Source of the DNA: a virus
Taxonomy: Duplodnaviria > Caudoviricetes
Length of the DNA: 64,000 nt
Strand: one strand, 5' to 3'
IMG/VR virus record: IMGVR_UViG_3300005582_000006
Location: 1-64,000 of that record
Shown one piece after another: positions 4,021-26,189 of this stretch. Both the position numbers and the translations under genes were made by a program. The notes below the pieces were generated by a model. That model had not been told where the DNA came from. It saw nothing but the letters and a program-made list of their open reading frames with translations, and searched no databases. The number at the start of each line of letters is the position of its first letter. Position 1 is the stretch's first letter.

Positions 4021-4035
4021 TTGTATAATTATCAG

Positions 4036-4051
4036 TGGTGTATTATACATT
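4036..4051 (+). promoter_or_regulatory. Putative late promoter directly abutting a start codon (possible leaderless mRNA)
   Basis: TGGTGTATTATACATT followed immediately by ATG 4052; no SD visible. Confidence 0.5.
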
Positions 4052-4573
4052 ATGGGCAAATTATTTACATTATCTGATGATGTCAAAAAAATAGCTCAAG
4101 ATGCTATAGATGACCTAATAGATCAATTGGGCAAGGATTGCCTATTGGTTTATCCCCCACTTCCAAATGCTTGTGTTAATTGTGTTATAGATCCGATTGG
4201 GAACAAGTCATCAAATCATTGGACTAGTGGTGGTCCTATGCCTTTTCCAAATGGCAGTATTTGCCCTTTGTGTGATGGTAGGGGATATCATTTCTCAGAG
4301 ACAACAACTCCGATAAAGCTTTTAATATCAAATAGCCCTTCTGATTGGTTTGTTAAAGTTCCAGCAAACATACAGCATCCAGCGGGAACAATTCAGACCA
4401 AGGGATATATAAAAGATTTAGCAAATGTTTTGCAGTCAAGAAAAATGATTATGCAAATAAGCTTAGAGCCAATGATTAGATATACATATGAACTTGCTGG
4501 CGAGCCTATTGATCAAGGAAACATAGTGCAAAACAGATATTGGGTTGCTATATGGAATAGAATAGGAGCTTAA
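4052..4573 (+). CDS. Putative head-closure/neck protein with Zn-binding CxxC pairs
   Basis: CVNC and CPLC motifs; position within the neck module. Confidence 0.5.
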   Translation: MGKLFTLSDDVKKIAQDAIDDLIDQLGKDCLLVYPPLPNACVNCVIDPIGNKSSNHWTSGGPMPFPNGSICPLCDGRGYHFSETTTPIKLLISNSPSDWFVKVPANIQHPAGTIQTKGYIKDLANVLQSRKMIMQISLEPMIRYTYELAGEPIDQGNIVQNRYWVAIWNRIGA

Positions 4574-4575
4574 AT

Positions 4576-5226
4576 ATGGCTTCTTTTAAATATAATGTTA
4601 ACCTTGACGAACAACAATTTGCATTAGCTGTAGTAAAAGAACTAAAAGCAACTCTTCGCAGAACAATAAATCAATTAATTGTACAAATAAGGCCAAGTGT
4701 TGTTGAATATATTGAAGATAAATTAAGAAAAGGTCCAAATGATACATATAATTCTTTAAGTATTGGAAAATTGAGAGATGATTTTGGTTTTAGACCAGGT
4801 GAAAATGTTGGAGAAAGAGTTGTTAAGGCAATATCGTCATCAATTCAAATAAATGCACTTGGACCAACTTCAGCAAGTTTGGGCGGTATTAGATTATCGT
4901 TATTTAAGGGTGGTGGCATAGAATCTTTATTAGATAAAGATTTTGGTGCTTATGACTCAAATGGCAATATTGTTGATTGGCTAAGATGGCTGTTAACTGC
5001 TGGTGATACTATAGTTATTGCTGATTATGAAGTAATATATAAAGATACGCCTCGTTCAAGAAGTCGCCACGCACTAATGATTTCTCCAAAAATGTCAAAA
5101 GGATTTAGGGTAGACCCAAATCATTCCGGAACAATAGATGATAACTGGATAACTAGAGCATTAGCTGCTACAGAAGCAGACATGCTCAAGAAGTTAAAAG
5201 AAGGCTTAGAGGGATTATTAAAATGA
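4576..5226 (+). CDS. Putative neck/tail-completion protein
   Basis: Position between the head-closure-like and terminator-like genes; the C-terminal DNWITRAL helix is reminiscent of HK97 gp10-like proteins. Confidence 0.45.
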   Translation: MASFKYNVNLDEQQFALAVVKELKATLRRTINQLIVQIRPSVVEYIEDKLRKGPNDTYNSLSIGKLRDDFGFRPGENVGERVVKAISSSIQINALGPTSASLGGIRLSLFKGGGIESLLDKDFGAYDSNGNIVDWLRWLLTAGDTIVIADYEVIYKDTPRSRSRHALMISPKMSKGFRVDPNHSGTIDDNWITRALAATEADMLKKLKEGLEGLLK

Positions 5227-6179
5227 GCATAAAATTTCATGGCGTAACAAATTATGGAGATTCCTTAACTTCAGACTTACTAGAAACATCTGTTCATATG
5301 TTCATGCAAAATGGATTTTTATGTGCTGGTGCTTTTACAAATATTTATGTTCCAACAGGAGTTTACCCCACAGGAGTTGGTTCACATTCTTTACCATCTT
5401 ATAAGATGAGACTTTCTAGAGATCCTAGATATGCAAATGGTTCTGTTTGGGAAGGTGCTAGATCAGATTGGGTGTGGGAGTCTGGAGTTGAATATACTCA
5501 TCAACCTATAAGTATTAGTGGTATATATGTAAACACATCTTTTATACCTAAAAATACATCTGGACCTTCTGGATATAAGATAAATTATCCCGAAGGTAAA
5601 ATTATTTTTAATTCCCCAATAGCTACAACTAGTACAGTTAAATGTGAACATTCTTATAGAAATGTAAGGATTGTATCTGCTGATATACCTTGGTTTCAAA
5701 CCATACAATATGACAGCTTTAGAGTTGATGATGTTCAATTTTCGTCTAAAGGGTCTGGTGCTTGGGATGTTCTTTCCCTAAATAGAATACAGCTTCCTGC
5801 TATAGTTTTAGAAACATTGCCATCTGTGAGCATGACACCTTATGAGCTAGGAGCTATTAATAGGGTTCATAAACAAGATATATTGATGCATGTTTTTGCA
5901 GAAACACCTTGGGATAGAAGGCAAGTTCATGATGTTATTATTAATCAATGGGAAAAAAGATTTTGGGGTATAGATAAGACAAAACTTTTAGCTGATCAAA
6001 AATACCCTCTTACATATGATGGGCAAATAGCTCCATCTGGATTAAATTATGGGGATATAACAACTGACTACCAATGGAAGCTGATATCTTTTGATAAAAT
6101 TAGATCTCAAGAGCAGTTTGCTGCTCCACCTATGTATAGATCTAGTATAAGAGTTACTTTCTCAATAGATTCTCTTTAA
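5223..6179 (+). CDS. Putative tail terminator/completion protein
   Basis: ATGA overlap with the upstream gene. QLPAIVLE...DILMHVFAE...R pattern of tail terminator folds; immediately precedes the major tail gene. Confidence 0.5.
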   Translation: MSIKFHGVTNYGDSLTSDLLETSVHMFMQNGFLCAGAFTNIYVPTGVYPTGVGSHSLPSYKMRLSRDPRYANGSVWEGARSDWVWESGVEYTHQPISISGIYVNTSFIPKNTSGPSGYKINYPEGKIIFNSPIATTSTVKCEHSYRNVRIVSADIPWFQTIQYDSFRVDDVQFSSKGSGAWDVLSLNRIQLPAIVLETLPSVSMTPYELGAINRVHKQDILMHVFAETPWDRRQVHDVIINQWEKRFWGIDKTKLLADQKYPLTYDGQIAPSGLNYGDITTDYQWKLISFDKIRSQEQFAAPPMYRSSIRVTFSIDSL

Positions 6180-6181
6180 AT

Positions 6182-6197
6182 TGGTGTATTAATTAAG
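6182..6197 (+). promoter_or_regulatory. Putative late promoter for the major tail protein
   Basis: TGGTGTATTAATTAAG in the intergenic gap. Confidence 0.55.
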
Positions 6198-6242
6198 TGA
6201 GGGTTGATTTTTGGACAGAATTTTATATGGGAGATTCATAAA

Positions 6243-7337
6243 ATGGCAAATCGAAGAATATTTTACGCTTGTCAAGCAGTAGGCATTGCAGCAGATGGCA
6301 CTACTTCTTATCAAGAAGTTCGTGGTCTTCAATCTGTTGGTATTAATACTACTTTTAATCTTCAACAAGTTTTTGAAATCGGTATGATTTCAATCTATGA
6401 AAACATCGAAGGTGTTGCAGATGTAGAAGTTACACTTGAAAAAGTACTTGATGGTTTTCCGTTGTTGTACCATCTCGGAACTCAAGGTGCTTCTAGTGCA
6501 ACTTTGGTTGGTCGATCTAACAGGAAAGCAATTCTTGCTCTTTCTATTACTGATGATACTCAAGAAGCTGCTTCTGGAGTTCCAAGTTCTACTTGTGTTG
6601 TTTCTGGATGCTTTGTAAGTCAAGTTTCTTACAAAATTGGCATTGATGGAAATGCTACTGAATCAGTAACTATGGTTGCAAACAATAAGGTTTGGAATAC
6701 TGGTTCTACTGGTAAGTGGACACCACTCTTTCGACCAGCAGACAATGCTGATCCTGCTTGGGATGCTGATCCATATGATGAAGCGACTAATTTTAGTGCT
6801 CAACGATCTGCCTCTGGTATTGCTCAAAGACAGCACCTTAATATGGACAAGTCTGTTTTCCCAACTCAGATTCCTGGTATTGATGCTTCTGGCAAGAATA
6901 CTATTAATAGTACCTTAAAATGCTTTAATACATCTTTCCAATCCGCTTCTGCTTCTGCGACTCTTGGTCGTGAACAGATTCTTGAATTGGGTCGAAAAGC
7001 ACCTTACTTCCGATATACCAAATTCCCAGTAGAAGTTAGTGCTGAATTTGAAGTATTGGCAAAAGGTGGCGATGATATTGAAGTAACCGAAAGTGGTTCT
7101 GCTTTCAATAGTTACAATGGTAACAACTTGAAAGATCAGACAATTAAGTTAGTTCTTACTGAAGGTACTGTTATTGATCTTGGTACAAAAAACAAGATGC
7201 AATCTTGTAATTACCAAGGTGGTGGTGTTGACGGCAACAATGCAACTGTCACCTACTCATTCAGAACCTTTAACGACTTTACTATTAAGCATCCAGTAGA
7301 TCCTACATCTGCTTTACGAAGCACTGCTGATCTATAA
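6243..7337 (+). CDS. Major tail (tube) protein
   Basis: Start re-called at ATG 6243 (SD GGAG). The GLQSVG...VFEIG and REQILELGRK halves resemble a duplicated tube fold. Biased codon usage, own promoter and terminator, upstream of chaperones and TMP. Confidence 0.7.
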   Translation: MANRRIFYACQAVGIAADGTTSYQEVRGLQSVGINTTFNLQQVFEIGMISIYENIEGVADVEVTLEKVLDGFPLLYHLGTQGASSATLVGRSNRKAILALSITDDTQEAASGVPSSTCVVSGCFVSQVSYKIGIDGNATESVTMVANNKVWNTGSTGKWTPLFRPADNADPAWDADPYDEATNFSAQRSASGIAQRQHLNMDKSVFPTQIPGIDASGKNTINSTLKCFNTSFQSASASATLGREQILELGRKAPYFRYTKFPVEVSAEFEVLAKGGDDIEVTESGSAFNSYNGNNLKDQTIKLVLTEGTVIDLGTKNKMQSCNYQGGGVDGNNATVTYSFRTFNDFTIKHPVDPTSALRSTADL

Positions 7338-7357
7338 TAGTTTGCAAACAAATATGT

Positions 7358-7390
7358 GGGCAGCAGGGAAACCTGTTGCCCCTTATTTTT
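7358..7390 (+). terminator. Rho-independent terminator
   Basis: Stem-loop GGGCAGCAGG-GAAA-CCTGTTGCCC followed by CTTATTTTT. Confidence 0.85.
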
Positions 7391-7401
7391 AGGAATATAG
7401 G

Positions 7402-8448
7402 ATGGATCAGTTTAAGAAGGAATTATATATTAGTAGAATTATTACTGGATTTTTTCGTTGTAAAATCAACGGAAAAGTCTATTTGCTTAAACAGCCAGAT
7501 CGCCACACTCGCCACATCGCTCAAGAAATATTCATAGAATCATTTGAAGAAGCAGAATTAGAAGGTCTGTACAATCAAGAAGAATTAGAATTCTTCATGT
7601 ATAGCAACAATGTATGGGATGATGAGAAAGAAAAACAAATCGTTCAAATGCCAAAAGACATTGAGGAATTAAAAGTAAGGCTATTTGAAGCCACATTTAA
7701 AACAGAAGAAAGAAAAACAATTAGGAAAATGCTTAAAATAGCAAAGGAAACATTTTCTAATCTATACAGAGAAAAAAGTGCATATAATCATTTATCTTGT
7801 GAAGGCATTGCCTCTATGGATAAGATGAGATACTTAGTTGGAAAAGGACTTTTATTTGAGGATGGAACTAGAGTTTGGGAAAATGATGACTTTTGGAAAC
7901 AAACTGAGCCACTTCTAGAAGATGCCACTTCAGCATTTATTGAAAATAAAATATCTGATTCTGAATTTAGAGAGATAGCAAGAACAGATCCTTGGCGATC
8001 TACATGGTCATGTAGAAAGTCTGAGAATAATTTATTTGGCGTTCCTGCTGTAGATTTAACAGAAGAACAAAAAAGCGTTATCATTTGGTCATCACTCTAT
8101 GATAATATATATGAGCATCCAGAATCTCCATCAGAAGAAGTTTTAGAAGATGATGATATGCTCGATGGATGGCTGATTTTGCAAAGAAGGAAAAGGGTTA
8201 AAAAAGGAATAGAAACAGGCGTAGATGGATTGCTGTCAAATGACAAAATAAGAAACAGTAAAGAAATATTTATAATTGCAGAAAACAAGGAAGATGCTAA
8301 GAAGATAGAATCTTTAAATGATATGAATGCAAGGATGATTAAGAAAGAAAGATCACAAGCTCTAAAAAAACATGGCACTCTTGCAGAAGAAAATATGCCC
8401 GACTCTATAAGGGATATTCAAATGCAAATGAATGCTGGAGGTAAGTAA
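7402..8448 (+). CDS. Putative tail assembly chaperone-like protein
   Basis: Acidic, helical 348-aa protein between the major tail gene and the TMP. Confidence 0.45.
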   Translation: MDQFKKELYISRIITGFFRCKINGKVYLLKQPDRHTRHIAQEIFIESFEEAELEGLYNQEELEFFMYSNNVWDDEKEKQIVQMPKDIEELKVRLFEATFKTEERKTIRKMLKIAKETFSNLYREKSAYNHLSCEGIASMDKMRYLVGKGLLFEDGTRVWENDDFWKQTEPLLEDATSAFIENKISDSEFREIARTDPWRSTWSCRKSENNLFGVPAVDLTEEQKSVIIWSSLYDNIYEHPESPSEEVLEDDDMLDGWLILQRRKRVKKGIETGVDGLLSNDKIRNSKEIFIIAENKEDAKKIESLNDMNARMIKKERSQALKKHGTLAEENMPDSIRDIQMQMNAGGK

Positions 8449-8449
8449 A

Positions 8450-8815
8450 ATGGACATATATTCACAAATGGAAGATGCTTCTAACTTTTCTAAAAAGGAT
8501 GAAGAAAGAAATAGAAAAAAGTACGAAACTGAATCAAAAACAAGATTGCAAAAAATTATAACTACTAAGCTAAGAACATCATTTATTGGTGCTCTTTCTT
8601 CTTTTGAACAAAACTTCGGAGAGATTTGGGGATATGGAATAAGTGAAGCTGATTTAACTGACAAACAAAGAAAGTGGAGGGAACTATGGGATCTGTGTAG
8701 AACAAATGTTTTGAATAATGGCAATCATCAAATTAGATCTTGCGAAAATGAGATAATGCAGTATATTGTTTATTGGAACAGACACCAGAATATTCTTAAG
8801 CAAAAGGAGGATTAG
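8450..8815 (+). CDS. Hypothetical protein
   Basis: Start re-called at ATG 8450 after SD GGAGGT. Confidence 0.65.
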   Translation: MDIYSQMEDASNFSKKDEERNRKKYETESKTRLQKIITTKLRTSFIGALSSFEQNFGEIWGYGISEADLTDKQRKWRELWDLCRTNVLNNGNHQIRSCENEIMQYIVYWNRHQNILKQKED

Positions 8816-8817
8816 TT

Positions 8818-9690
8818 ATGAGTGTCACAAATAAGAAACAGTTTAAGGTGACTTTGGATAGTAAAGAAGTCGAACTTTGTGTTGTTCGACCTAATGTTAA
8901 GCAAAGGCAAGAAGGGCAAAAGATTTACAATAAGGCATTTAGAGATGCCGTTGAATCTGGTGCAATTCTTCGTGGTAAAGTCAATAATGTTATGCGAGAG
9001 CAGAATCTTTGGGATGATAACAAAGAAGCTGAATATCGTAAATTATTGGAAAAAATTAATGGGGCAGAAAGGAAGATTAAGTCTGGCGGTATTAAACTCA
9101 ATCAGGCTAAGGACTTAGCTCTTGAAATGAGGAAAGATCGTGCGGAACTTAGAGCTTTAACCTCTGAGCGATCATCCCTAGATAATAATACTGCTGAAGG
9201 TCAAGCAGATAATGCCCAATTCAATTACTGGGTTAGTTCATGTACGGTGTATTCAGAGACAGGGAAAACATATTTTAGTAATTATGAAGATTACTTAAAT
9301 AGAGATGACGATCCAGCAACTGGACAGGCAGCAGGAAGCCTTGCTATGTTGCTTTATAATCTTGATCCAGATTATGAAAAGAAACTACCTGAGAACCAGT
9401 TTTTAGCTAAATACAACTTTGTGGATGAAGAGTTGCATTTAGTTGATAAGACAGGGCGAAGGGTTGATTCTGAGGGTAGGCTAGTCAATAAGGATGGTAG
9501 GTATATTAGTGAGGCTGGTGAACTCATTGATATTCATGGTAATCGAGTTAACGAGGAAGGAGATTATGTTGTTGAATTCTCTCCGTTCCTTGATGACGAA
9601 GGTAAGCCAATCGAAGAAAAGATTGAGACTGTCAAAACAACGGCAGCACCAGAAATTGTTGTTGAAGCAGCTAAAGTTCCTGCTGAATAA
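8818..9690 (+). CDS. Putative tail assembly chaperone
   Basis: SD AGGAGG; acidic, coiled-coil; directly upstream of the TMP. Confidence 0.5.
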   Translation: MSVTNKKQFKVTLDSKEVELCVVRPNVKQRQEGQKIYNKAFRDAVESGAILRGKVNNVMREQNLWDDNKEAEYRKLLEKINGAERKIKSGGIKLNQAKDLALEMRKDRAELRALTSERSSLDNNTAEGQADNAQFNYWVSSCTVYSETGKTYFSNYEDYLNRDDDPATGQAAGSLAMLLYNLDPDYEKKLPENQFLAKYNFVDEELHLVDKTGRRVDSEGRLVNKDGRYISEAGELIDIHGNRVNEEGDYVVEFSPFLDDEGKPIEEKIETVKTTAAPEIVVEAAKVPAE

Positions 9691-9786: not shown

Positions 9787-12700
9787 ATGGCTTTTAATCT
9801 GACTGCCAATTTAAATGTTGCTGTAAATAGTGGTGCTTTAAAAGCAGCAGCCAATCAAATAAATAGCACATTAGGAAGTGTGAACAGTTTAAAAATAGGA
9901 ACAAATTCTGCAACATTTGCTTCTCTTACTCCATTAAAAACTCAGCTTTCTGAGGTTACTAATTCCATAGAAAATTTTGGTAGGCAAGCTGGCTTTGCTG
10001 CTAAAAGATTTGCTGCATTTGCTGTGACTGCTGGTTCAATTATTACTTTCACTAACAACATTAGAGAAGCACTTTCTGCTGCTGTAGATTTTGATAGAGA
10101 GATGATTAGGCTAAGACAAGTCTCTGGAGATACGGCACAAGATGTTGCTGCTGTAGGTGAACAAATAACAGGTTTGTCTAAGGGTTTGGGTGTTTCAAGT
10201 AAAGATTTAGTTGGTGTAGCAGTAGTTTTAAAACAAGCTAACTTAACTCTTTCCGAAACTAAAGATGCTCTAGAGGCAATGGCACAAGCTGCTTTAGCAC
10301 CAAACTTTGATAACCTCAAAGATACGACTGAAGGTGCTATTGCTATCATGAAGCAGTTTAAGGTCGAGGCAAAGGATCTTGGTTCAGCTTTAGGTTCTGT
10401 TAATGCTGTAGCTGGCGAGTTTGCTGTTGAAGCATCAGATATTATTGAGGCGATTAGAAAGACAGGGGGTGCTTTTAAAGCTGCTGGTGGTAATTTAAAT
10501 GAGCTTATAGCCTTATTTACATCAGTACGACAAACGACAAGAGAAAGTGCCGAAAGTATTGGTACTGGCTTAAGAACTATATTTACACGAATACAAAGAA
10601 ATGATACGGCTAATGCCTTAAAAGAAATTGGTATAAATCTTAGGTATACCGCAGATGAAGCTAAAGCTTTAGGAGATGTTGGTTTAGAACAGCAATTTGT
10701 TGGTCCATACGAAGCTATTAAAAGGTTGTCCTCTGGACTTTCTGAACTAAGGTCAACAGATCCCCGATTTAGTGCCATTGTTGAGCAATTAGGTGGTTAT
10801 AGGCAGATCAGTAAGGTTATCCCACTTATTCAAGAATTTGCTACTGCACAGAAGGCATTAGGGGTAGCTCAAGCTGGTAGTGTGTCTTTGGCTGTTAATG
10901 CTGGTCAAGCACAGGATGCTCTTGCTGTAAAACTACAGAAGTTGAAGGAAAGCTTTTTTGAGGTTGGTAGAAGTATTGTTAATAGCCCTGGCTTTAGAAG
11001 TTTGGCTGATACATTCATTGGTGCTGCCACTTCGGTCTTGTCATTAATCAATTCACTTAAAGGTTTACTCCCATTATTTACTGCTCTCGCTGCTGTAAAA
11101 ATTGGTCAAAGTATTGGTTCTTTTGCCACAGGTTTTGTAAAAGGTGCTGGTGCAGATAATTCTTCTGCAAGAACAAATAAAAAAGCAGATGGCGGTTTTC
11201 TTAGGATGAGAACAGGGGGCATAGTGCCAGGGAGTGGAACTGGGGATAAAGTGCCAGCTTTGCTTGAGCCAGGTGAGTTGGTTGTGCCAAGGAGTCAAGT
11301 AAGAAGAACTAAATACTATAAAGCTGGTCCTGTAAAATTAGAAAAAGTAGGAGGTAAAAAAGATACATCGTCAATAAATACTCTGATTAATAATGATCTA
11401 GACAAAATGTTAAATAAAGAAGACACAATTTATATGGAAGTTGTAGAAAAAAAACAAAAATTATTAAGCGATGAACATAAAAAAGATATTTATTCTTCAT
11501 ATCGTTTGGAAGATTCAGATGCTGAATTGTATTCTGATCCAAATTTTCGACCAATAATGTACGCTTCTGACAACACAAAACCAAAAACAGTAATATCAAC
11601 AGCAGAAGCATTAGAGAAATATAAAACACAAAATCCAAAATTTAAAGAATTATCGATAGATTACTTAAAAAATTTAAAGAGAAAGATTGCTCCAGCAGAA
11701 GCTGCATGGGGGAAAAAATTTGAAAATATTACTCTTGAAAAATACAGTAGTACTATTCAAGCAGCTACAAGACCGACAATAAATGGCAAAATGGTTGCCG
11801 AAAGCACTTATCCAGTAGACACTGAAACAATAAGTCCTAGAAAAAGGAAATATGGAGACATTAAATTTAAAACTAGCAAAGAAGAAAATAATCATTTGTT
11901 AAGTAAACAATTAAGAGCAAAATTGTATTATAAAAAACCTGAAAAATTAGGCTTTAGTAAAAAACTAGGAGATAATGTTGATTTAGGATTATTTGAATAC
12001 TATGGTTCATATGATACAAAACAAAAAGGCAAAACCATACTAGGAGCAAAAGGAGATTTTTTACAATCATTACAAGATTTGCACAATCAAACAAAACCAA
12101 AACTTGCTCTAGGTGGACCAATCCCTCGCCAAAGATTCATGAATGGCAATAGTGTAGGACCAAAACCATTTCCACCAAATTTTTCCCCCGAAGAAATTTT
12201 AAATTTGGTCAAGGGCGTTATTCATACAGATGAAGTGATAAAGGGTGCATTTAGAGTTGCTGCAAAAATAAATCATCCAGACAAGAATCCTACTGCTAAA
12301 CCTAATGGCAACATGGAAAGAGTAAATGCTGCTCTTAGGACTTTATTAGATAGAAACATTCTTATAAGAGCAAGGGCTGAAGCTGGTCCAAAGACCACAG
12401 ATAATACTAGACGAAATACCTCACCACCACCGCCACCAAAAAGAAATGCTCAATCAGAAGATCAAATTTTTAGGGCTGTTTTTGGCGATGCTCCAACTAA
12501 AGACGAAGCAAGAAGTCAATGGAAAGGCACAAATCCAGAGACATTTACCAAACCAAATAGATTTGATAGTTTTGAAGCAGTTAGAAATGCTAGTCAATTT
12601 AGAGAAAAAGAAGAAGCAGCTAAAACAATGAACGCTTCTTCTGCATATAGTGACAGGCTAAGAAAAGCAAAAAGAGGATATGCTAATGGTGGAGATGTAG

Positions 12701-15700
12701 TTAGACAGAAATTTGCTAGTGGTAAGTTTGTTGCTAAAGATACAAAAGGAAATATTGTTCGTGATAGTGTTGATGGTGCAGACGAAGTTGAAATGGCTGC
12801 AAAGATTAGGCAGATGGGATACTTTGTTATATCTCTTGAGCTTGTTGCTGCCAAAAAAGCCTCACAACAAAAACTACAAGAAAGACAAGACAGAAGAGAT
12901 CAAGCAAAAGAAAGAGCGAAAGAACTTAGAAGATATTGGAATATGAATGAGACAGACACAGGTGACATTAATACATCTAGACCTCCAAAAAGAGGTAACA
13001 GTCTTGCAATAGAAGAATCAGAAAGACGAGAAGAAAATGCTAAAGGAATTGTTTTGTCTGGACCAAGTGGTGCTATTGCTGGAGGTATTACTGGTGCTGT
13101 TAGTGGTGCTCTTCTTGGTAATATTCCGGGGGCATTTATTGGTGGCACTTTAGGATTTGGTGCTGGAGCAGTTGGCGGTATGATGTATGACAAATCAAGA
13201 AAATCAGAAGATGAAAAAAATAAAGGTTTGGCTAGATTTTCTTATCAAGACGAACAGGGCAAAAAAGGAATTATTCCTGCTAGAGATAAAGAAGAAGCAA
13301 TAAGAAGATTGTCTTTTGATCGTATTACACCAACAAATATGCGGAGAGTTGCACCAGAAAGATCTTGGGGTGAATATCTCGAACAAAAAAGAAATGATAT
13401 TTTTGGTATAAAAAAAGCATCAATAGAAGAGACAAATAGGGAATCTCGTAGCCGTGAAAGAAAATTTAGTAAAAGCATAGGCAAAGGAGATGCCCCACCA
13501 ATAATGGTAAGGAAACCATCTAAAAAGACCAAAGAATCTAAAAAATATAGTGAAGATATATACAAGCCACTTCCTGCATTAGCATTAGATCCAACTTTAG
13601 GAAAATCAGTAGCAATCACAAAAGAAATGATGGAAGAAAGAAAAAAGGCTAGGGGTTTTGCTTCTGGTGGATTAGTACCAGGAACTGGCAATTCTGACAC
13701 AGTTCCAATGGACTTAGACGAAGGTTCGTTTGTAATTAAAAAGTCTTCAGTTAATAGCATAGGCATTGATAATTTAGCTAATGCTCACAAATTTGCATCT
13801 GGTGGTAAAGTTCCTGCATTACTCACGCCAGGTGAATATGTATATAGCCCTAGCGAAGCAAAGAAAATTGGTGCTAATAAACTTCATCAAATGAATAGTT
13901 TTGCAAAATTTAAAAAAGGTGGTGAAGTTGGTAATAGTATAGTTAGTGATACATTTTTAAATAGCCCAAACAACTTAAAGAAAATACTTTTAACATTAGT
14001 TGATCAAATAATGGAGTCAGATCCAGAAATATCAAAAAAAGATGCAAAAGCAGAAGCCACAAGAATTGTAAGTGAAATAAAAGTTCAAAATCAAACATCA
14101 AATCAAGCAATTGGAAATGTTGCTAGAGCAGATCAAGATATATCGGCAGAAAAATCAAATATTGGTGTTTTTAATAAAGAACTAAAGGGTTTTGGTAAAA
14201 CACTATCTACTTTAGGTAAAGAAGCAACTAGTTTAGCGGAAGCACTTCAGAAGAATACAGATGCAGCAGATGCTTCATATACTGCTGAATTAGAATTAAG
14301 GGCAAAGGGTACAGCAATAGTAGCTGCTAGAGATGCAAAAGTAGCAGCAGGACAAGATTTAACTAAAGAAAATACAAGGGTTGGATCTGCACAAACAAAA
14401 GTAAATGAATTAAAAGATAAAAAGAAAGACATGGAAGAGGCTAGACAAGCAAAAATAGATGCAGCAGATCAAAGAATTGCAGCAGCAGAACAAGCAAAAA
14501 TCACAAAAGAAGCTCAACCAGTAGATTTAACTCAAGAAAATAAAAGAGTTGTTTCAGCAAAACAAAAAGTCGATGATTTAAAGCAAAAAAAGAAGGACAT
14601 GCAAGAAGCGAAGCAAGCAAAAATTGATGCAGCGAGTCAAAGACTTGCAGAAGCAGAAGAAGCAAAAAGATTAAAATCTCAACAGCCAGTAAACTTAAAA
14701 AGTGAAACTGCAAAAGTTGGAAATATTACCGGAAGAATTTCTGTTCTAGAAGCAAGAAAAAAATCTAAATTAGATGCTGGTGAATCAGTTAGAGTTGTGA
14801 ATGCACAAATAGCAGAAGCAAAAAGACAAAGAGATGTATTGACAAAACAGATGGCAGATAAAACTGCTGCTGGACCTAACACAAAAAAAGAACAAGAAGA
14901 AATTGATAAAGCAAAAGAGGAATTAGCAAAAGCTAGTAAGCCATTAAAAACAAAAAACATAGACACAAAAATAATGAGAGCAGAAGATGCTCTTACGCAA
15001 GCTACTACTGCAAGAGACAACAAAGTTCCTAACACAAAAAAAGAACAGGAAGAAATCGATAAGGCGAAAGCAGAAAAATTGGAAGCTGAAAAACCATTAA
15101 AATCAAAAGCAATAGATGCAAAAATAACAAAAGCTGAAAGTGCTTTGACTACAGCAACAAACGCAAGAGATACCAAGGCAAGAACGGCAGTAGACACATC
15201 AAAAGAAGATGCACAAATTTTAAAGTTAAATCAAGATTATCAAAAACTTCTTGATGATAGAAATACAAATGCTCAAAATAGAGTGGCAATAGAAAATAGC
15301 ATTACTGCTGTTGGAACTAAACAATTAAATGTTCAAAATGAAATTTTAAAGACAGAACAAAACATAAAAGATGCAGAATCAAACATACAAAAAGCCGAAA
15401 CAGCAAAAGCAGCAGCAAAAGCATCAGGGGAAAAGGCCACTAGATCATTTCAAGTAAATGCAAAGGGTGAGATTGTAAATGAAAAAGGAAGGCCAATTGG
15501 ACAAACAAAGCCAATAACTACACCTGATTCAATAAAGCAAATTTCAAAACAAAGAGAAAAAGAATACGCTAAACAAAATGATGGTAAAGCCCCTAGAAAA
15601 AGCGAAAGAGAAGATATAAGAAGTGGAATAGTTAATGAATATAGAGTAGCAACAGAAAAACAACTTAGAGCAAAAGCACAAAAAGAAGGAAAACCTGTTA

Positions 15701-18700
15701 GCGAATTGCAAATCCAGTCTATGACTGATCAATACACTAAGCAGTTTGCTCAAGGAAAAAGAGGGGCAGTTTTTAATAAACAAGGTGAAGTAACAGGAGA
15801 TAAGTCTTTAGGATCAAAATTAATTAAAGGTGGAGATTATAAAGAAAGTGGCGATTTAACATTCCAAGGTAAGGTAAAAGATTTTGGAAGTAGAGCACTT
15901 TTTGGTTCAAAACGGACTGATTTTGAAGCTGGTTCAGAAGGAGAGAGACAGTTTAAACAAGATAGAGCATCTGGTTACGCCAATAGAATAACAACTGCTG
16001 CTGTTGGTGGATCTTTACTTGCTTCTGGAATGAGAGCAGAAGCACCAGAAGTTTCTTCTCTTGCAAAAGCAAATGAACAAGGAGTAGTTGTTGAAGATAA
16101 AGCACAGCAAGAAGCTTATAGGTCCACACTTCAATTTGCTGGTGCTATTGAAAAAGCTGGAACATATGCTGCTACTACTGCTACCGCTTTTTCGGCACTT
16201 GGGCCAGTAGGTACTCTTGTAGGCGGTGCTTTAGGTGCATTTGTTGGATTAATAAAAGGTTATGCTGATGGCACTAAAGAAGCAGAGGCACAAATAAGAG
16301 AAGTAAAGTTAGGTGCTGCACTAACAGGATTGCAAGGAACATTTGATAAATTAAATACTGGTTTAAGAACTTTTGATGATACTATTGCCGAATCAATTGC
16401 AGCAAATCAAAAAATTATTACTGAAGCAAACGCTGGAAAAGCATTCGTTGAAGCTGGTGGAGAGAAAAGTGGTTTTGATAGATTAATATCTGGAATTACT
16501 GGTGGCGGTTTTGGTGGATTTGATGTTAAAAAATTCAACGAATTAAATTCAAAAAGTCAAAAAGAAGCTGGTGCTGCACAAATAGTTCCACTTACGAACA
16601 TTTTAAATAAACAAGCCGAACAACTTGGTTCTAGTGCAGTAAGACAGGCTGGTGGAAATGCTGGAACATTAGACTATAAAGATTTTGCAGCATCATTAGA
16701 TACCAAATTAACTAGTGGCGGTGGTGGATTTAATAATGCACAAATACAAAAAATTGCTAATGCAAGAAATGTAAGCTTTGATGATGTTAAAAAAGAAATT
16801 GTAAAAGTAATGAAAGATTCTTTTAAAGCTGCACAATTAGAAAAAACTCAAAAAGAAGCAGTAACTGTAAATCAAAGATCTATAAATTCTATGGCATTAT
16901 TATCAGAAGCAGTTGTTGCTGCTGCTAATTCGGTAGAAAGTTTCTCTAATAGGTTAAGCACAAATGAGTCATTTTTTAGTGGCGGTATTGGATCAACAAA
17001 AGTAACTGGAATTTCTAATCAGTTTGATCAAAAATCAACTCCAGACTTTAATTCTTTTAATTCTGCCGTTTCTAAACTTTCTGATTCACTTGGAACTTAT
17101 GGCAATGAATTTAAGACTCAAGGAAATGCGATTAATGCAGCTTCACAAGCATTGCCTTCATTACTTGCTGGTGCAATAGAAGATCCTGTTGGTGGTCAAG
17201 ATATAGCCGTACAAATAGCTGCTGGTTTAAGAGAAGCTTTAAGTGCTCAAGGTATTAGTGGGGCTGGAGCAGATAGAGTCGTAAGTTCTGTTGCTGGAAA
17301 TGTATCTGGACAAGAATACACAAAGCTACTTGCTGAAGCTGGTGGCGATGTATCTAAAGTTGCAGAAAAACTACTTGGCAATATAAAAGACCCATTTTTA
17401 AATGCAGCTAAAGATATAAGTCAAAGATTAGAAAATGCAAGTAATCAATACATTAGTGGTTTAGAAAATTTAGCTCAAAGACAAAAACAAATTGGCGAAT
17501 CGTTTAAAAACTTAGAAAGTGCAAAACTACAGAGAGATAAGTTTACAGCAGAGACTGTTGCTACAAATGCTGGTTTGCCATCACAAGCAGGGAATTTGAT
17601 TTCAGTAGATAGACAAATGCAAGGCTTTAGAACAAATCAAGAAAGACTTACTGGAACCAAAGGAGCAGAAGCACAGGACTCCAGAGTAATTGGAGATAAC
17701 TTAAAAAGAACGCAAGAAAGAATTAGGGAATTAGAACCCAAAGTACAGAATGCTTCTGGTGCAGAAGGTGGTGGGGCTGCATTTAGAGGTGCAGCATCTG
17801 AGTTAGTTAAATTAAAATCAGAAGCTTCAAATTTGCAAGAGTCATTAAAGAATTTGGCAGATCAATCAAACAATCTTGCTATTTTGGAAGGCAAACTTGG
17901 TCAAGTAAGACAAGAAAGAGATAATGAAACTCAAAGAGGAAAAGAGTTTTTAACGGCAGATCCAAAAGAAAGACAAAAAATATTAAGAGATAGAGTTCAA
18001 GGACAAGGACTACTTAAACAAGCACAAGCTCAAGGTGGAAATGTAAGTAATTTTAGTTCTGGACAAAACAAAGCACTTTTTGCATTCTTAGATAGTTTTG
18101 GTCCAGTTGGAAAAGATATTGCAGACAACATTGTGCGTAATACTACTGGTTTAGGGAAAAAGAAACCAGAAGAAGATATGTTAGTTGGAAAATTAGCCAA
18201 AGTATATGACGAGCAAGTAAAAGCAAATCAAGAGTTAATTGGTAATCAAAGAAGTTTACAGACTGATTATTTTTCTCAGTTGACAAAACAAAATACTACA
18301 TTTTATTCAAACCTAGATAAATTTATTGCTGGCATGGAAAAAAGTCAAGTTCAAGATGAAAAAAATAGAGAAGTTGCAAAGTCTGCAAAAATAAAAGATG
18401 TTCAAGAAAAAAGTGGTTTTCTTAGAGAAGCTGGAGTAACTGATGAAAATCTAAAAGATGTTAATGCAAATAAAGGAAAAATATCAGAAGTAATAAAAGC
18501 AAGAGAAGCAGCAAAAGAAGAGGAAAAAAGATCTGTAAATATTAATGAGTCAATGAGAGAAGGTGATTTCGCACAATCTCTAGGAAGATCATTCACTAAA
18601 GATGCAAGAGAAGCAGATGCAGCAAAAGAAATTGGATCAAAAGGAGAAACATTAAATGACATACTTTCAAAAATAGGATTGACAGGAAAACAAAGCTCTC

Positions 18701-21700
18701 TAGTTCGTGAGCAAGCAACAATTGCTGTAACTCAAAATAAAGATTTAAACATAGAAGAAGCAATAAAAATAGCTATAAGACAAGTATCGGGTCAAACAGT
18801 TAATGATGCAGAAAAAAGAGTGAGTACAGCAGAAAAAGGTGCTGGAGCACTTGGCGTTAATATTGCCAATAAAGCACAAGAACAAGGAATAAGTGCAGAA
18901 AAGTTTGAATCTAGTCTTGCAGCAGTTACCGAATTAAATCAAGGTATTGGGGTAAAACTTACAACGGCAGCAAGTACTGCTACAGCAAATATTGATAGAT
19001 TATCTGCATCCATTAATAGTTTAGGGGCACAACAACAAGGTATTGCTCCAGTTAATGTAAATGCTAATCCTGCACAAGCAATTGGATTTGCAGTTGGTGG
19101 TCCAGCATTTTCCCCAAGAGGAACTGATACTGTTCCAGCAATGTTGACACCAGGAGAATTTGTAGTAAATAGAAGTGCAACACAACGAAATCTCCCACTG
19201 CTTCAATCTATAAATAGTGGAAAAACATCGTATTTAGCAGATGGTGGAGAGGTATTGGGAAAAAGAATAAAAGCATCAGAAGATGTAATGAAAATATGGG
19301 ATACCCCAGGATTAAAACAAGAAGAAAAAATAGCTTCAATTAGAAACATCATAAGCAATAAATATAATTCTCTTAAAGAGTCTTCTTTAACTAATGTTCC
19401 TAATGGAATAGAAGGCGAATCAAGAAAGTCTGCTGCTTCTGCAATATTGCAAGAGGTTATTTCATCTTTATCAATAGGTCAAATTCCAAAAAATGAAAGT
19501 GCTAAAAGGGTAATCGATAGCAATGGTGGAATTGAATCACTTCAAGATTTTGGAAATATTTTTGGTGATTTTAAAAGAAAAGGAGATACAGAAAATTCAC
19601 TAGGTTATAGAACAAAAGAAATAAATGATAATTATGAAAAAATTAAAAAAGAAATGTTAGATGAAAAGTTATTAGATCCAACAGAATCATATGAAAACTT
19701 TAAAAAAGATAATAAATATAATTATGAGTTATTATATAGCAAATATGATCCTGCAAACATAAGGACTGCCCTTAATAGTGTGATGATAGAAGCTGGTAGA
19801 GATGCAACAGTAAAAGAAAAAGTTGTTGCTGGATTACTTGGTGCTGGTTCTGCAATTATTGCTGCTCCTATCGCTATTGGTGGCGTAGCTCTTTCTGGTG
19901 CTGGAGCTTTAGGAGCGAGTATTAGTGGGGCTTCTGTTACTGCTGCTGGAGCTACAACTTATGGACTTGGAAAACTTATAATGTCAGAGTCCGCAGAAGA
20001 AAAAAAGAGAATGGATTTATTTAAATTGGATGCAGCAATAGCAGATCCAATAAACCAAGATAATACACATGGGTATTCTGCTGCTGTTTCAACAGGAGCA
20101 AATATTAAAAAGTTTGCAGATTTAGAAACATTGAATTCAAAAAAAGAATTTGCAGAAGGAATGAAAAGGATAAAAGAAGACTTTAATCATGTTTACAAAT
20201 ATGGAGTTTCTGGAAATGTTAAAACGCCAGGCTGGTGGGGAAAAACAAATGAAGAAAAAATGAATACTGATTTATTAAAAGAAACATGGTATTACAAAGG
20301 AACTAATGGTGGTGCTATAGATGTAGCAAAAGATGGCTATACATGGCCAGGTATTCAAAATTATAGTGGTGAAAAGGTTAATACTTTTATTCAGCCCCTT
20401 ATTGATAAGGCAAATGCTCCAGATCCATCAAACGCACAAAAAATAAAAAATTACTTAAAAAGAAAAAATATATCTGATAAAACATATTTAATTCCAGATG
20501 ATTTAAATGATTTAAATCAATTTATTGTAAATCCAGAATATTTAAAAAGTTTAAATGCTGCTGGCACTAAAGATATAGATGCTAATATAGATGCTAAAAT
20601 ACCACAATATATTGCAACAATAGCAAATTTAAAAGCACAAAAGAAAGACATTGTTTCAGAAAAGAAACAAGAAAATATAGTTGCCAACATTGCAAACGAA
20701 GAAGGCACAACGCCCATAGATACGCAGATAAGAATGGCAGAGAATGAGGTTCTTGCAGCAAGAGGGAATAAAGAATTAGAATCTAAGAAAAAAGCAGAAT
20801 TAGAAATATTAAAACTAAGAAGAACAAGCTATAACCAAACTGGATTAACATCTAATGAAAAGTTAAGAAATGCTTATGGTCAAAATAGACCAGAAATAGA
20901 TAAGAGCTATGTTGAATCTAAAGCTTATCTTACTCAAATAAAAGAAGGAACTGGAGAGAAGTTTGTCGCTACAGATATGGGCAAAGAAGACGAGCTTTTC
21001 TTAAAGAGACAGGGCGATGCAGGAAGATTAGCACAAATAGGTTTAAGAAGAGAAGTGCAAGCTAGTGCTATACTTGGCAAAATGGTAAAGCTAAAAGGTA
21101 TTTTTGCTAAAAATCAAGGCGAAGAATTAAACAAAAAAGAATTTGCTGAAATTGGTAAAGATCCAAATCAATTAATACCTTTAGGCTTAAAAGAATACAA
21201 TAATTTATACAGTGGACAAAAAGGAAGTTTAGCAAAAGAAGACTTTGATAATCCTAAACTTATACTTCCATTCCAAAAAGAAATTGTTGGATCTTTCTTT
21301 AAACAACAAGCAAGCACAAGATCTTTAGCAATAAGTGGTAAGGGTCTTCTTGACTTTATTGATCAATATTCAAACATAAAAGACACTAAGGGTTTTGTTG
21401 AAGCAAAGGTAAAACAAGCTGGACCAGATGCTATACCTTTAGTTGTAAGGGCGATAGAAGAAGGAAAAATAAATGCGTTGAGCGTTCTTAATGCAGCAGC
21501 AGCAAATGTTGGTGGTATAAGCAGAAAGAGCTTAGAAGGTGCTATTGGAAGAAATAAAGACTTTAATCTATTAGATAAGCTCTCCGAAAAACAAGAAGGA
21601 AAAGCACAAAAAATTGTTAAACCATTCTCTGGAATTGATTTTATAGAAGGTGAAGATGGTGCTTATGCAACTATAAAGGCAGTAAGTGGAAAAGGTCAAG

Positions 21701-24700
21701 TTTCGATGTCTGCCAATAATACCGCATTAAGAATAGCTGCTCCTTACTTGCCAAAATCAATTTATAAACAAGATATTCTTGCTGGAGAAGCATATAACAA
21801 TGATGGATTAAAAAAATTGGCTGGTGATAGACCAACATTGGGAAGTCCTAATAGCTCTTTCACATTTCCAGCAGATGGGCCAAGTCTTTTTACTACAGAA
21901 GATTTTTTAAATGCTGTAAGTAATTCACAGGGGTACGCAACTATTTCATCAAAAGCAGTAGTTGTAGAAGAAGATGTTGAAGGTAAGAAACAAAGAAAGA
22001 TTGATTATAAAAGAAATTTAGATGTTGCAAATATTGAAAATTCTAAAACTAGAGAGGCGATGAAAAATCGTTTAAAGCGTATAAATGACATAGAGGGAAT
22101 TAATAAACCGAATCAACCAGAAGAAAATAAAAATGTAGTTAAAGGAGAACCCAATGAATTTCAAGCTGCAATTATAAAAGAAAAAAATGAACAGAGTGCT
22201 CTTGCAGCTAGACTACCTAGAGCAACCAAAGAGCAACAATTATTTGAAGGCCAATACGGAGAACTAAGTGTTGAAAGTCGATTAAATAGGGGTGAAATAA
22301 CTAGAGAAGAAGCAGCAGCACAAATAGAACGACAAAGACAAGCTAGAAAAATGTCATCTGGTGGAATAGTAAACTATCTTTCATCTGGTGGTGTTCCTAG
22401 TCATAGTCCTAATCCTGATCCTTCGTTCTTTAAGCCTAAAGGTACAGATACAGTACCAGCTATGCTTACGCCAGGTGAGTTTGTAATAAATGCCTCTGCT
22501 ACTGCTAAACATGGCGATTTATTAAGTGCTATAAATAGTGGTAAAGATGTTGGATATTCTGCTACTGGTGGAATAATTTATTTAGAAGATGGTGGAGAAG
22601 CAAGAAAAAAAGCATTTTATGAAAAAATGAATAAGCGAAAAAATGACGAAGAAAAATTAAGATATTTAGTTGATGATAAAGATAAAGATAAAAATACCTA
22701 CATGCAAGACAGAAAAGATGATTTAGAATCTACTGCTAATAGGGCAACTCAAACTTTTTCTCGTAGGCAGAACCAATTTATACAAGATGAAGACAAGAGC
22801 AATAATGCTGGAACAGAAATGGTTTTTAATGCTATGGGGATGACTGGACTTGCAAAAGCAGGAATATCTGCAATTTCAAAATTTGCAATGAGTCCATCAC
22901 TTAACGCTGCTGGTCAGGGAGCAAAAAATATTGGGAAAAACTATTTTAAATACGAAGCACAAAATCAAGTGCAAAACACAGGTATAGATATTTTTAAGTC
23001 AAATGCGGAAAAATTACTTAGATATGCAAGCGGTGGATTAGTAAGTTATTTATATGATGGTGGATACTTAAAAAGAAGAGCAAACTTAGCTTCTTATAGT
23101 GGCAGTGAAAATGAATATGTTACAGATCAAGAAGAAGTTGGTAAACAAAATACGGCAAATATAACCAATAGAATAGCAGCAAAGAATCAAGCTGAAAACA
23201 ATGCATTTCAAATGTTTTCTAACATTAGATTTAATGACGGAACTGGTAGTCTTTTTGACAATACACAATCTGGATTTTCTACTGGATCTGGTGGTGTTTC
23301 TGCTCAACAAGCACTATCTTTTCAAGATCCAACTAAGCCTGGTGGAGAAGGCATAACATCAGCAGCAATGGGTATGATTGGAGATGTTCAATCCAGAATG
23401 AAGGGTAATAAAAATCCATATGGAAATATTTCTGTTACTGGTGCAGAATTAAACGAATTAAAATCTGCAAAAGCAAATGAACCAGAAATACAGAAGAGGT
23501 ATGATGAATATAAAAAGTTTATAGAAGAACAAAAAAAACAACAAGAAGAAGAATCTGGTAGTACATATGCAAGTTTGGGGGGATTGATTTATGCTCAAGG
23601 TGGACTTTATCTTCCTCGTAATAATTATAGACCATATGTTTCAATTCCAGATAGCAGTTACACAGGTAGCGGAGGTTACTTTGGTGATAATGAATCTATT
23701 AATAATGGTGGGGGTTATTTTGGTGAAAGTGGAGATAAAATAGAAAGACAACAAAAACTTTACGAAATTCAAAAGAAAAAACAAAAAAGTCCTCGTTACC
23801 TACAAGCAGAACAATATCAACAACAACAATTTCAACTTAGAAATCAAGCATATCAATCACAACAACGAAAATCGCAAAATCCTAAACGACAACAACAGCC
23901 AGAACAATGGCAAATAAATTGGCAACAACAGCAACAAGCAAGTGGATATAAAAATCCATATGCAGCATTGCAATCAAAACCAATGTTTCCAGAACAGAGA
24001 CAACAACAATCAGAAAATTTTCAAAATCAAAGGGCATATCAAGCAAAGCAAGAAATGTATGGCGGTCCTAGTGCCCAACCAGTATTTCAAGCAAGTAACT
24101 ATGCAGGAAGTTTCTTTAATCAAGTTCCACAGCAACAACAAGTAGCACAAGACCCAAAACGAAAACAATTAAGTTTGTTTAGAATGAATCTAGGGTCATA
24201 TAGTTCTGGTGGTAATGTAGATACTATTCCAGCTATGTTAACTCCTGGTGAGTTTGTAGTAAATAAACAAGCATCATCTAAAAATTATTCTTTATTACAT
24301 GCAATCAATAGTGGCAAAGAAGTTGCTAGATTTAAAGATGGTGGTAGCGTTGGAAATATTCGTGGAAGAAAAGTAGACCCAATAGAATCTGGAATAAGTC
24401 TATTAGCTGGTAAGCTATCTGGAGTTGGAAATAAATTTATTGAGAGTGGAGATTCATTCAAGACTGGAGCAAATGCTAATAGGGAAGGATCACAAAACAT
24501 ATTGGCTTCTTCATCAAAGTTTAATTCTGGAGTTGGAAGTTTTGCTGATTCTGCTACTAAAATATCAAAAAGAAAGGGCTATAATTCTGGTGGTCTGGTA
24601 AACTATTTTGCAGATGGTGGATTCACACCAAGAGGCACAGACACTGTTCCCGCTATGCTGACACCAGGAGAGTTTGTGGTAAATAGACAATCAACATCTA

Positions 24701-26187: not shown

Positions 26188-26189
26188 AC

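Follow-up and report, generated by a model that had tools for sequence, protein, structure and literature searches.

A homologue of the PilC/GspF N-terminal domain within the giant tape measure protein of an uncultured phage

The DNA analyzed here, referred to in the following as the window, is a stretch of 64,000 nucleotides, positions 1 to 64,000 of the viral record IMGVR_UViG_3300005582_000006 (Duplodnaviria; Caudoviricetes). It is a portion of a 76-kb IMG/VR virus record, for which CheckV estimates a completeness of 51%. One open reading frame (ORF) of the window, at 9787–25119 (+), encodes a tape measure protein (TMP) of 5110 amino acids (aa). It matches PF10145 over aa 125–337 in a Pfam scan (E = 2.3e-23) and ten PHROG tape-measure families (best phrog_28, E = 5e-26), and it sits among large ORFs on the same strand, as expected for a tape measure gene. 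Within this protein lie two peptides that a first-pass annotation, made from the sequence alone, had described as mimics of the N-terminus of PilC/GspF, the platform protein of the type IV pilus and of type II secretion systems. The locus thus raises the question of whether a tape measure protein really carries part of a pilus machine, and what such a part might do. We conclude with high confidence that both segments are T2SSF_N domains, the N-terminal domain of PilC/GspF, one copy being well conserved and the other diverged.

Homology of the two segments to the PilC/GspF N-domain

Segment 1 spans 12724–12864 (+), corresponding to TMP aa 980–1026. The translation of 12724–12840 is KFVAKDTKGNIVRDSVDGADEVEMAAKIRQMGYFVISLE, preceded by QKFASG, and is identical at every position to the first peptide quoted in the annotation. 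When the 56-aa segment 1 piece was run by phmmer against 1.84 billion representative sequences, 27 matches were obtained at E ≤ 1e-3. In 21 of these the peptide is located at or near the start of the protein, beginning MPTFKFEAMDTTGGEVKDS..EEEAQQKIRQMGYFVTK, and several extend into the start of a T2SSF domain. Three others are giant TMPs of 4822–4941 aa, 69–89% identical over the same piece, and one is a 911-aa protein (P0006) in which the peptide occurs twice in tandem, together with a Ser/Thr kinase domain, a zinc ribbon and T2SSF domains. Of the last two, P0007 (1137 aa) is highly repetitive and has no PilC-like N-terminus, and P0010 is a protein of 1954 aa. With one of the N-terminal peptides as the query in turn, longer proteins were matched in 1338 cases at E ≤ 1e-3. 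PF00482 and PF28597 occur together in all 120 that were listed; full-length members have about 413 aa, and 'type IV pilus assembly protein PilC' is the name given to many. BLASTP aligned segment 1 directly onto residues 5–45 of a 413-aa T2SSF protein, with 22/41 residues identical (E = 5e-11).

Profile comparisons gave the same result. A hidden Markov model (HMM) that we built from 29 platform-protein N-termini, taken from a Planctomycetota-wide sample and a few other phyla (one row being spurious) and excluding loci fetched as Gemmatales PilC relatives, ranked TMP aa 981–1026 at the top among the 120 ORFs of the window, with an independent E-value (i-E) of 3.1e-13. Aligned by hhalign to the N-domain profile, segment 1 reached a probability of 98.9%. 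In the ESM Atlas, all 30 feature matches were PF28597, with a top score of 0.96; this family is listed there as T2SSF_N, 'Type II secretion system protein F, N-terminal domain'. Membership in PF28597 was judged by proxies (our own HMM, hhalign, the ESM Atlas and PF28597-annotated homologues), and by these proxy models segment 1 has the sequence profile of T2SSF_N. Its alignment with PilC is ungapped over about 50 residues, from the first residues of PilC into the linker, and the VAAKK start of the linker is common to the TMP and the PilC of the closest Gemmataceae. Identity to Gemmataceae PilC N-termini is 54–62%.

Segment 2, at 13231–13350 (+) or aa 1149–1188, contains the second quoted peptide at 13234–13341. 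Run alone against our HMM, it was the second-best match in the window with an i-E of 0.15, and against TIGR02120 (GspF) it aligned to positions 7–41 with E = 0.34, touching only part of that model. A profile of the four TMP copies, compared with the N-domain profile, aligned in register with an hhalign probability of 91% and a score of 30.4. None of 300 column shuffles reached this score (mean 8.9, standard deviation 1.9, maximum 16.8), and the reversed alignment scored 11.3. Segment 2 is thus assigned to T2SSF_N by profile–profile comparison, and is weak as a single sequence. With its predicted fold, described below, these values bear out the suggestion of a weaker second copy in the same protein.

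The fold was predicted with AF2 for TMP aa 970–1200, using a 65-row alignment. In segment 1, the model has strands at aa 977–984, 990–997 and 1013–1019 (model residues 8–15, 21–28 and 44–50) and a helix at aa 1000–1009 (31–40), with block-mean pLDDT values of 94–97; the fold starts three residues upstream of aa 980. Segment 2 is predicted as strand-strand-helix-strand, with block means of 90–94. Both segments are accordingly modeled with the beta-beta-alpha-beta fold of about 45 residues that the excerpted text of PMC10790770 describes for PulF. Segment 1 is followed by a long helix at model residues 52–86 (block-mean pLDDT 78–96), and a glycine-rich stretch falls below 50. The whole model has a mean pLDDT of 71.8 and a pTM of 0.33, and the relative placement of its parts is therefore uninformative.

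A resemblance by chance, or through a generic beta-alpha-beta pattern without homology, might have been suspected from the early searches. Pfam and NCBIfam scans of 60- to 84-aa pieces returned nothing, a word-indexed search with a 60-aa piece gave no match among longer proteins, and phmmer found no match among PDB sequences. These misses are explained by the Pfam copy that was scanned, which was without PF28597, and by the dependence of the other searches on shared words or solved structures. In contrast, phmmer, BLASTP, the independent HMM, hhalign with its shuffles, the ESM Atlas and AF2 all concur on homology. For segment 1 this agreement already refutes a chance match, and overall we consider the probability of such an explanation to be negligible. 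The similarity that had been noticed is thus true homology, and the BLAST and profile searches led, as the annotation had anticipated, to PilC/GspF N-termini, with those of Gemmataceae and Gemmatales nearest.

The two copies are internal (aa 980 and 1149), whereas the T2SSF_N of a platform protein stands at the very start of the chain and is connected to Cyto1 through a flexible linker. A basic linker is kept in the TMP, but no PF00482 (T2SSF) domain was found in the TMP or elsewhere in the 76-kb record. As far as its sequence goes, the TMP is therefore not a platform protein and carries the N-domain of one only.

Source of the domain and the cassette that carries it

For P0124, the full-length PilC that is closest, 442 relatives were confirmed among the collected genomes, from which the best 80 loci were kept. 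Most of these 80 have Gemmataceae, Gemmatales, Planctomycetota, Planctomycetia or Planctomycetaceae titles; the others comprise four assemblies of 'uncultured Alcaligenaceae', two of Singulisphaera, and single ones titled 'Candidatus Kuenenia', 'Bacteroidales' and 'Bacterium HR36'. Segment 1 shares 26–28 of 45 residues with the loci of lowest GC content (43–48%), 13–27 with other Gemmatales loci (GC at least 50%) and 8–18 with the Planctomycetota-wide and other-phylum sample, and the copy in an 89% identical relative (P0003/L001) shares 29–31 of 45 with the low-GC group. The same gradient was seen when genomes were searched with the 56-aa piece and counted at E ≤ 0.01. Matches were found in 122 of 151 genomes of the family of G457, a low-GC Gemmataceae genome, with top identities of 54–60%; in 54 of 301 Planctomycetota genomes, at 28–43% identity; and in 8 of 301 Bacteroidota genomes, at 33–38%. 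The hint in the annotation that the peptide resembles planctomycete PilC was therefore well placed: the nearest relatives are PilC proteins of Gemmataceae and Gemmatales, and the closest of all are in the Gemmataceae genomes of lowest GC content.

In a maximum-likelihood tree of 102 N-domains over 45 columns, in which most forks were unresolved, the four TMP copies formed one clade (SH-aLRT 99), with low-GC Gemmataceae in the nearest rows. The single clade fits one capture followed by retention, and the domain was most likely taken from a Gemmataceae-type pilC gene, at its 5' end, by an ancestor of the giant-TMP group. The DNA of segment 1 has a GC content of 36.6%, compared with 47.4% for the first 135 bases of G457 pilC. 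The phage itself has 30–38%, and because segment 1 has this phage composition, the capture is not a recent one.

The two segments belong to a swappable cassette of about 325 aa, at 12682–13656 (+) or aa 966–1290, which was recognized from a break in BLASTP similarity to a relative, L301. The L301 TMP is 90% identical to that of the window over aa 1–470, and the two remain collinear through a J-domain-like segment (described below) until a 'YA(N/D)GG' motif at aa ~965; similarity restarts at 'KKARGFASGGLVPGTGNSDTVPMDL', which is aa 1286 in the window and aa 2169 in L301. The upstream boundary is thus a YANGG junction motif (12679–12693 (+), aa 965–969), where the collinearity ends, and the downstream boundary a FASGG motif (13657–13671 (+), aa 1291–1295), where it resumes. 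Between them, segment 1 (taken here to aa 1020; net charge −1) is followed by a basic helix starting with VAAKK (12847–12951 (+), aa 1021–1055; net charge +5), which is the long helix of the AF2 model, and by a loop (aa 1056–1086, −1). Then come two hydrophobic glycine-zipper stretches without charge (13045–13188 (+), aa 1087–1111 and 1113–1134; PF13488 Gly-zipper_Omp, E = 3e-4), which we infer to form a hairpin. A short spacer (aa 1135–1148, +1), segment 2 (aa 1149–1188, +4) and a basic tail (13351–13656 (+), aa 1189–1290, +10) complete the cassette.

Other cassettes, of unassigned nature, fill the same slot in related TMPs. Eighteen related IMG/VR TMP loci were found, with 40–96% identity over aa 1–470, and 13 of them cover at least 1700 aa. 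Only one of these 13 has the cassette, on the same contig as L001, and it is absent from the other 12. Two additional carriers, P0004 and P0005, were found via segment 1 itself, a route that favors carriers, and P0004 as a query found no relative in IMG/VR. The IMG/VR scan for the N-domain used a single peptide pattern by which copies like those of P0004 and P0005 would be missed, and the viral copy counts are therefore lower bounds. When the cassette (aa 966–1290) was compared with proteins of 178–569 aa, none matched at E ≤ 1e-3 in a word-limited search whose E-value scales with query length.

In the TMPs of the more distant relatives L308, L314 and L315, a short motif at aa ~557–578, YIFSAKDKNGKPIKQEVEIQD, aligns with the N-domain profile over strands one and two only, with E-values of 5e-4 to 2e-3 among 18 sequences. 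It may be a remnant or a chance match; being a beta-hairpin-like motif only, it was not counted among the N-domain copies.

The TMP contains eight xAxGG motifs, which coincide with module boundaries, and six motifs of the 'D.VPAMLTPGEFV' type (aa 487, 1304, 3114, 4221, 4812 and 4952). Both kinds are apparent junctions of exchangeable modules. Giant tape measures would thus carry exchangeable cassettes between conserved xAxGG junctions, and other host-directed modules may be among them.

Divergence within the cassette was compared with that of the TMP backbone by Nei–Gojobori counts for a single pair, the window and L001. In the backbone, dN/dS is 0.12 over aa 1–470 and 0.23 over aa 1291–2100, with a summed ratio of nonsynonymous to synonymous changes of 38.7 : 70.3. 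The corresponding ratio is 28.5 : 12.5 for the whole cassette (dN/dS 0.62) and 9.5 : 1.5 for segment 1 (dN/dS about 1.8). These numbers are small and come from one pair; by Fisher's test against the backbone, p is about 4e-4 for the cassette and 5e-4 to 7e-3, depending on rounding, for segment 1. The basic tail has no amino-acid difference over 102 codons. Six amino-acid changes in segment 1 are grouped at the start of the helix, where the L001 version is closer to PilC. Across the TMPs, segment 1 is 54–69% identical to PilC N-domains, and its copies are only about 70% identical to one another. The raised dN/dS of the cassette fits an arms-race interface or relaxed constraint. Bounded by junctions, absent from 12 of 13 relatives and with a raised replacement ratio, the cassette behaves as an accessory, effector-like element.

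The domain was also found in an unrelated viral record, G463 (IMGVR_UViG_3300032138_000020; 47 kb, CheckV completeness 100%, 50% GC in the fetched 8-kb locus). The copy lies in L299:7650-16469 (-), at aa ~1335–1375 of a 1726-aa piece (P0150) within a 2939-aa ORF, matches the profile with 75.9 bits and is 50% identical to segment 1. This ORF has no Pfam or PHROG family except for a weak Rho_N match. Another phage thus seems to have acquired this host domain independently, suggesting that capture of T2SSF_N recurs. P0006, described above, is a bacterial protein, and P0011 likewise has two tandem T2SSF_N copies; these tandem arrangements indicate that the N-domain is a mobile and duplicable module in cells too.

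Possible actions of the cassette on the pilus machine

In the excerpted text of PMC10790770, the PulF N-domain (residues 2–54) is attached to the core through a flexible loop and lies at the periphery in every model; it shows no sign of co-evolving with the remainder of PulF and is unneeded for stability or oligomerization. When it was deleted, secretion and pilus assembly persisted, with significantly lower efficiency. The domain is non-essential also in P. aeruginosa PilC and N. meningitidis PilG, and the piliation defect of a pilG N-domain mutant was suppressed by removing the retraction ATPase PilT (PMC10790770). According to the same excerpts, the ATPase N2 domains contact Cyto1 and Cyto2 in an AF2 model from which the N-domain was omitted. 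The first-pass annotation had taken the peptide for the region facing the assembly ATPase and had proposed an injected decoy that jams or engages the pilus motor. Its premise is not supported: the contacts described are those of Cyto1 and Cyto2, the N-domain is described as peripheral and dispensable and not as the ATPase-facing surface (PMC10790770, excerpts), and a PilB decoy as stated is unsupported. A complex prediction of segment 1 with the 751-aa PilB-like ATPase encoded beside pilC in G457, the one ATPase used, scored 0.00 and gave no answer. Since the PulF N-domain is dispensable, competition for its partner would be predicted to impair pilus assembly without stopping it.

Taking shut-off and entry together, we lean toward an action of the cassette on the pilus machine. 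The form that we put forward, tentatively and as somewhat short of probable, is a shut-off, in which the cassette is a virion-delivered, membrane-anchored 'headless PilC' that disturbs the machine. Upon ejection of the tape measure, the hairpin would insert into the cytoplasmic membrane. By the positive-inside rule, basic flanks of membrane segments face the cytoplasm, and because both flanks of the hairpin are basic (net charges +4 and +15), both of them, and hence both N-domains, would be placed on the cytoplasmic face. J-domains act on cytoplasmic Hsp70, and the J-domain-like segment just upstream of the cassette is a weak pointer to cytoplasmic action as well. The tethered N-domains, without the Cyto1, Cyto2 and transmembrane core that couples to the ATPase, would then occupy, in the pilus machine, the putative site at which the N-domain of host PilC docks. 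Pilus dynamics would be upset as soon as infection begins and with no need for gene expression, probably toward less extension or a shift to retraction, by which competing pilus-dependent phages would be excluded. A candidate target machine exists in G457, judging from its genes, which encode a PilB-like protein of 567 aa, a PilT-like protein, the PilB-like protein of 751 aa and a PilC of 411 aa that has this N-domain and, after these, three proteins in which prepilin N-methylation motifs occur.

Several points weigh against the proposed shut-off. Binding, topology and phenotype are all inferred, and even for the native N-domain the authors regard the interacting partners as still to be identified (PMC10790770, excerpts). 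Given the dispensability of the domain in PulF, PilC and PilG described in that text, competition may merely weaken pilus assembly. A TMP segment at aa ~1000 would also have to reach the cytoplasmic face. Most close relatives of the TMP (12 of 13) do without the cassette, and its raised dN/dS could equally result from relaxed constraint. In each of the four TMP copies, Met stands in place of a helix Ala that at least 90% of the aligned PilC N-domains have (EEEA to E.EM).

The host is not established either, and the GC content of the phage is about 11–13 points below that of the closest Gemmataceae loci (30–38% versus 43–48%). No significant DNA, spacer or prophage match to window positions 5001–64000, the part searched, was found in five low-GC Gemmataceae genomes; two of the searches gave 0/5 at E ≤ 1e-3, and a third gave short, chance-level matches (best E 0.007). 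In addition, a distant relative of the phage replication module occurs in a contig binned with a Flavobacteriales metagenome-assembled genome. This lead came from a match of the phage DnaE to L002 (NZWA01000066.1; 9.4 kb, 32% GC), in which six ORFs are syntenic with the replication module of the window at 31–51% identity. Most likely L002 is a fragment of a related phage that was binned with the bacterial genome, and its Flavobacteriales label is therefore no guide to the host; the match was rejected as host evidence. T2SSF had no match in G001, the genome behind L002, and T2SSF proteins were found in 18 of 151 genomes of its order. None of 17 platform ORFs from that order has the N-domain (best E 0.59). 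The putative link to low-GC Gemmataceae has a single source, the similarity of the N-domain.

The homology and topology arguments made for a shut-off apply in the same way to an entry device, an alternative that the annotation had also named. The N-domains would dock the ejected TMP to the pilus machine at its base on the cytoplasmic side, either in PilC's position or next to it, and the phage would use this trans-envelope machine as a route or an anchor in delivering its DNA. A function in entry would suit a domain that lies inside the virion protein that must cross the envelope, unlike the early-gene products Aqs1, Tip and PfsE. Two more parts of the TMP, aa 2124–2156 and 3346–3395, are uncharged and membrane-like, and the hairpin between two N-domains resembles a membrane-anchored platform stub. 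However, the 12 of 13 related TMPs that have no cassette must deliver DNA too, and the cassette is therefore not essential for entry. Neither was a receptor- or pilus-binding tail protein identified among the ten structural-region proteins scanned (window 1–9690 and 25132–34812), none of which matches a PHROG family at E ≤ 1e-3. We consider an entry device distinctly unlikely. The same small chance would be given to a more specific picture, in which a platform-protein stub plugs the TMP into the base of the pilus and either freezes the machine at once, for an exclusion that needs no gene expression, or turns it into the trans-envelope entry port of the phage. If this were true, the phage would already have 'found' the long-sought partner of the GspF/PilC N-domain, and the raised replacement rate of segment 1 would mark an arms-race interface.

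It may also be that the domain has no pilus-specific role. It could be a soluble, membrane-proximal module that aids the hairpin, or a packing or spacer element of the tail lumen, and its origin in PilC would be of historical significance only. In molecular dynamics simulations, the PulF N-domain remains on anionic-lipid membranes (PMC10790770, excerpts). The cassette is dispensable among relatives, other cassettes occupy the same slot, and both the raised dN/dS, if it means relaxed constraint, and the replaced helix Ala would be expected of such a module. On the other hand, the 54–69% identity to PilC has been kept, including the surface stretches KDSVD and KIRQMGYFV, which exceeds the needs of the fold. 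The N-domain is not basic (net charge −1, versus −3 in Gemmataceae PilC), so that lipid binding would depend on the linker, and a second, unrelated virus has captured the same domain. We consider the absence of any pilus-specific role doubtful, although it deserves some weight. We assign a very low probability to a different cytoplasmic target, whether RNA polymerase, as for T7 Gp2 and YkzG, or uracil-DNA glycosylase, as for p56. These three were among the top small-domain neighbors in a Foldseek search of the PDB (p56 at rank 1, YkzG at rank 6 and Gp2 at rank 24), and YkzG and Gp2, both RNA-polymerase binders, are the two structural homologues named for the PulF N-domain in the excerpts of PMC10790770. 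However, none of the Foldseek matches is significant (0 at E ≤ 1e-3; best E 0.15, identity 8–19%), the arginine used by Gp2 and YkzG is missing from the PulF N-domain according to the same excerpts, and the sequence of segment 1 is specifically PilC-like.

The surrounding phage genes and comparison with known systems

The J-domain-like segment lies at 12196–12354 (+), TMP aa 804–856, and has an intact HPD. It matches PF00226 with E = 6.4e-4 and 20.2 bits, under the cut-off of 27.8 bits. Against the PDB at E ≤ 1, 13 of 16 matches were J-domains (best E 0.011) and the other three, including the top two, were designed repeat proteins. The segment recurs weakly in L301 and L306, and L001 has HSD in place of HPD. 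If real, it would suggest that the ejected protein recruits host Hsp70. A likeness to a staphylococcal nuclease motif in the L001 TMP was unsupported, and no Pfam family was found in aa 470–1470 of L300. The related giant TMPs, with 4822–4941 aa, are of similar size, and related TMP loci are found on viral contigs of up to 221 kb. Tape measures specify about 0.15 nm of tail per residue; by this rule a TMP of 5110 aa would imply an extraordinarily long tail, if the whole protein measures length.

The proteins of the structural region without a PHROG match include two encoded downstream of the TMP, one of 1362 and one of 626 aa, and in Pfam the same ten proteins gave only a GT2 domain and weak, chance-level matches. 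The lack of PHROG matches implies that the phage lineage is very distant from described phages. A megablast search with 9787–14000 found no match among cultured phages. A block on the opposite strand encodes a split DnaE, DnaB, a primase, a RecA-like protein, a PD-(D/E)XK nuclease and several glycosyltransferases. DNA polymerase III alpha is divided between two ORFs at 47516–51970 (−), one with the PHP domain and an NTPase domain (640 aa) and one with the finger, HhH and OB parts (541 aa). A 212-aa ORF of no assigned function lies between them, and L002 has the same layout. There are at least four glycosyltransferase genes (GT2, GT1), at 2221–4020 (+) and 42791–47112 (−), one of them within the structural block. 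No tRNA genes were found in the window.

The closest point of comparison is the T2SSF_N domain of PulF and PilC themselves. The TMP segments share with it the sequence family, the beta-beta-alpha-beta fold and the basic VAAKK linker. In PilC, the domain stands at the N-terminus of a membrane protein of about 410 aa, whereas in the TMP it is found at aa 980 of 5110, is duplicated around a glycine-zipper hairpin, has no PF00482 after it and has Met in place of the helix Ala. Tape measures with accessory domains are known: muralytic or Rpf-like motifs occur in mycobacteriophage TMPs and in T5 Pb2. These inserts resemble the cassette in being modules within a TMP that act on the host envelope during ejection. 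They act on the cell wall, whereas the cassette copies a cytoplasmic domain of a motor platform.

Phages also carry copies of pilins, P-FimU and P-PilA, for which the benefit proposed or shown is protection from competing pilus-dependent phages, in the excerpted text of PMC12952977. Like these proteins, the TMP is a phage product with homology to a part of the type IV pilus machine of the host, in its case at the level of a domain, corresponding to PilC residues ~1–50. The pilin copies, as described in that text, are whole or truncated pilins encoded by separate genes and incorporated into the fiber, whereas the TMP has a cytoplasmic platform domain within a virion protein. Other phage proteins act on the pilus machine by binding: Aqs1 is a small PilB binder that contacts a hydrophobic patch on the PilB N2 domain (PMC13436744, excerpts), Tip binds PilB, and PfsE is a small PilC binder (PMC8764522, excerpts). 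If the proposed shut-off is right, the cassette would have in common with them the pilus machine as target, the shut-down of pili and superinfection exclusion. These inhibitors are small and separately expressed, with no homology to pilus parts mentioned in the excerpts, whereas the TMP domain is host-derived and lies within a virion protein of 5110 aa.

An action of the kind proposed would extend the manipulation of type IV pili from inhibitors and pilin copies that are expressed separately to a copied cytoplasmic part of the machine that the virion brings ready-made, and from the well-studied proteobacterial hosts to planctomycetes. Retention of the N-domain in an injected protein suggests that its partner is worth hitting, and the phage version could be used as bait for that partner. 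The similarity also gives a testable host lead, low-GC Gemmataceae, for uncultured phages with tape measures of about 4800–5100 aa and structural genes that are unmatched in PHROG. A tblastn search with segment 1 against the cultured phages of INPHARED gave no match at E ≤ 0.1, and full-text searches of the literature returned no description of a platform-protein domain in a tape measure; the excerpts cited above describe no such part in a virion protein either. The targeting and mimicry of the pilus machine by phages and the presence of accessory inserts in TMPs are thus known from other systems, and what is new here is a platform-protein domain in a virion protein.

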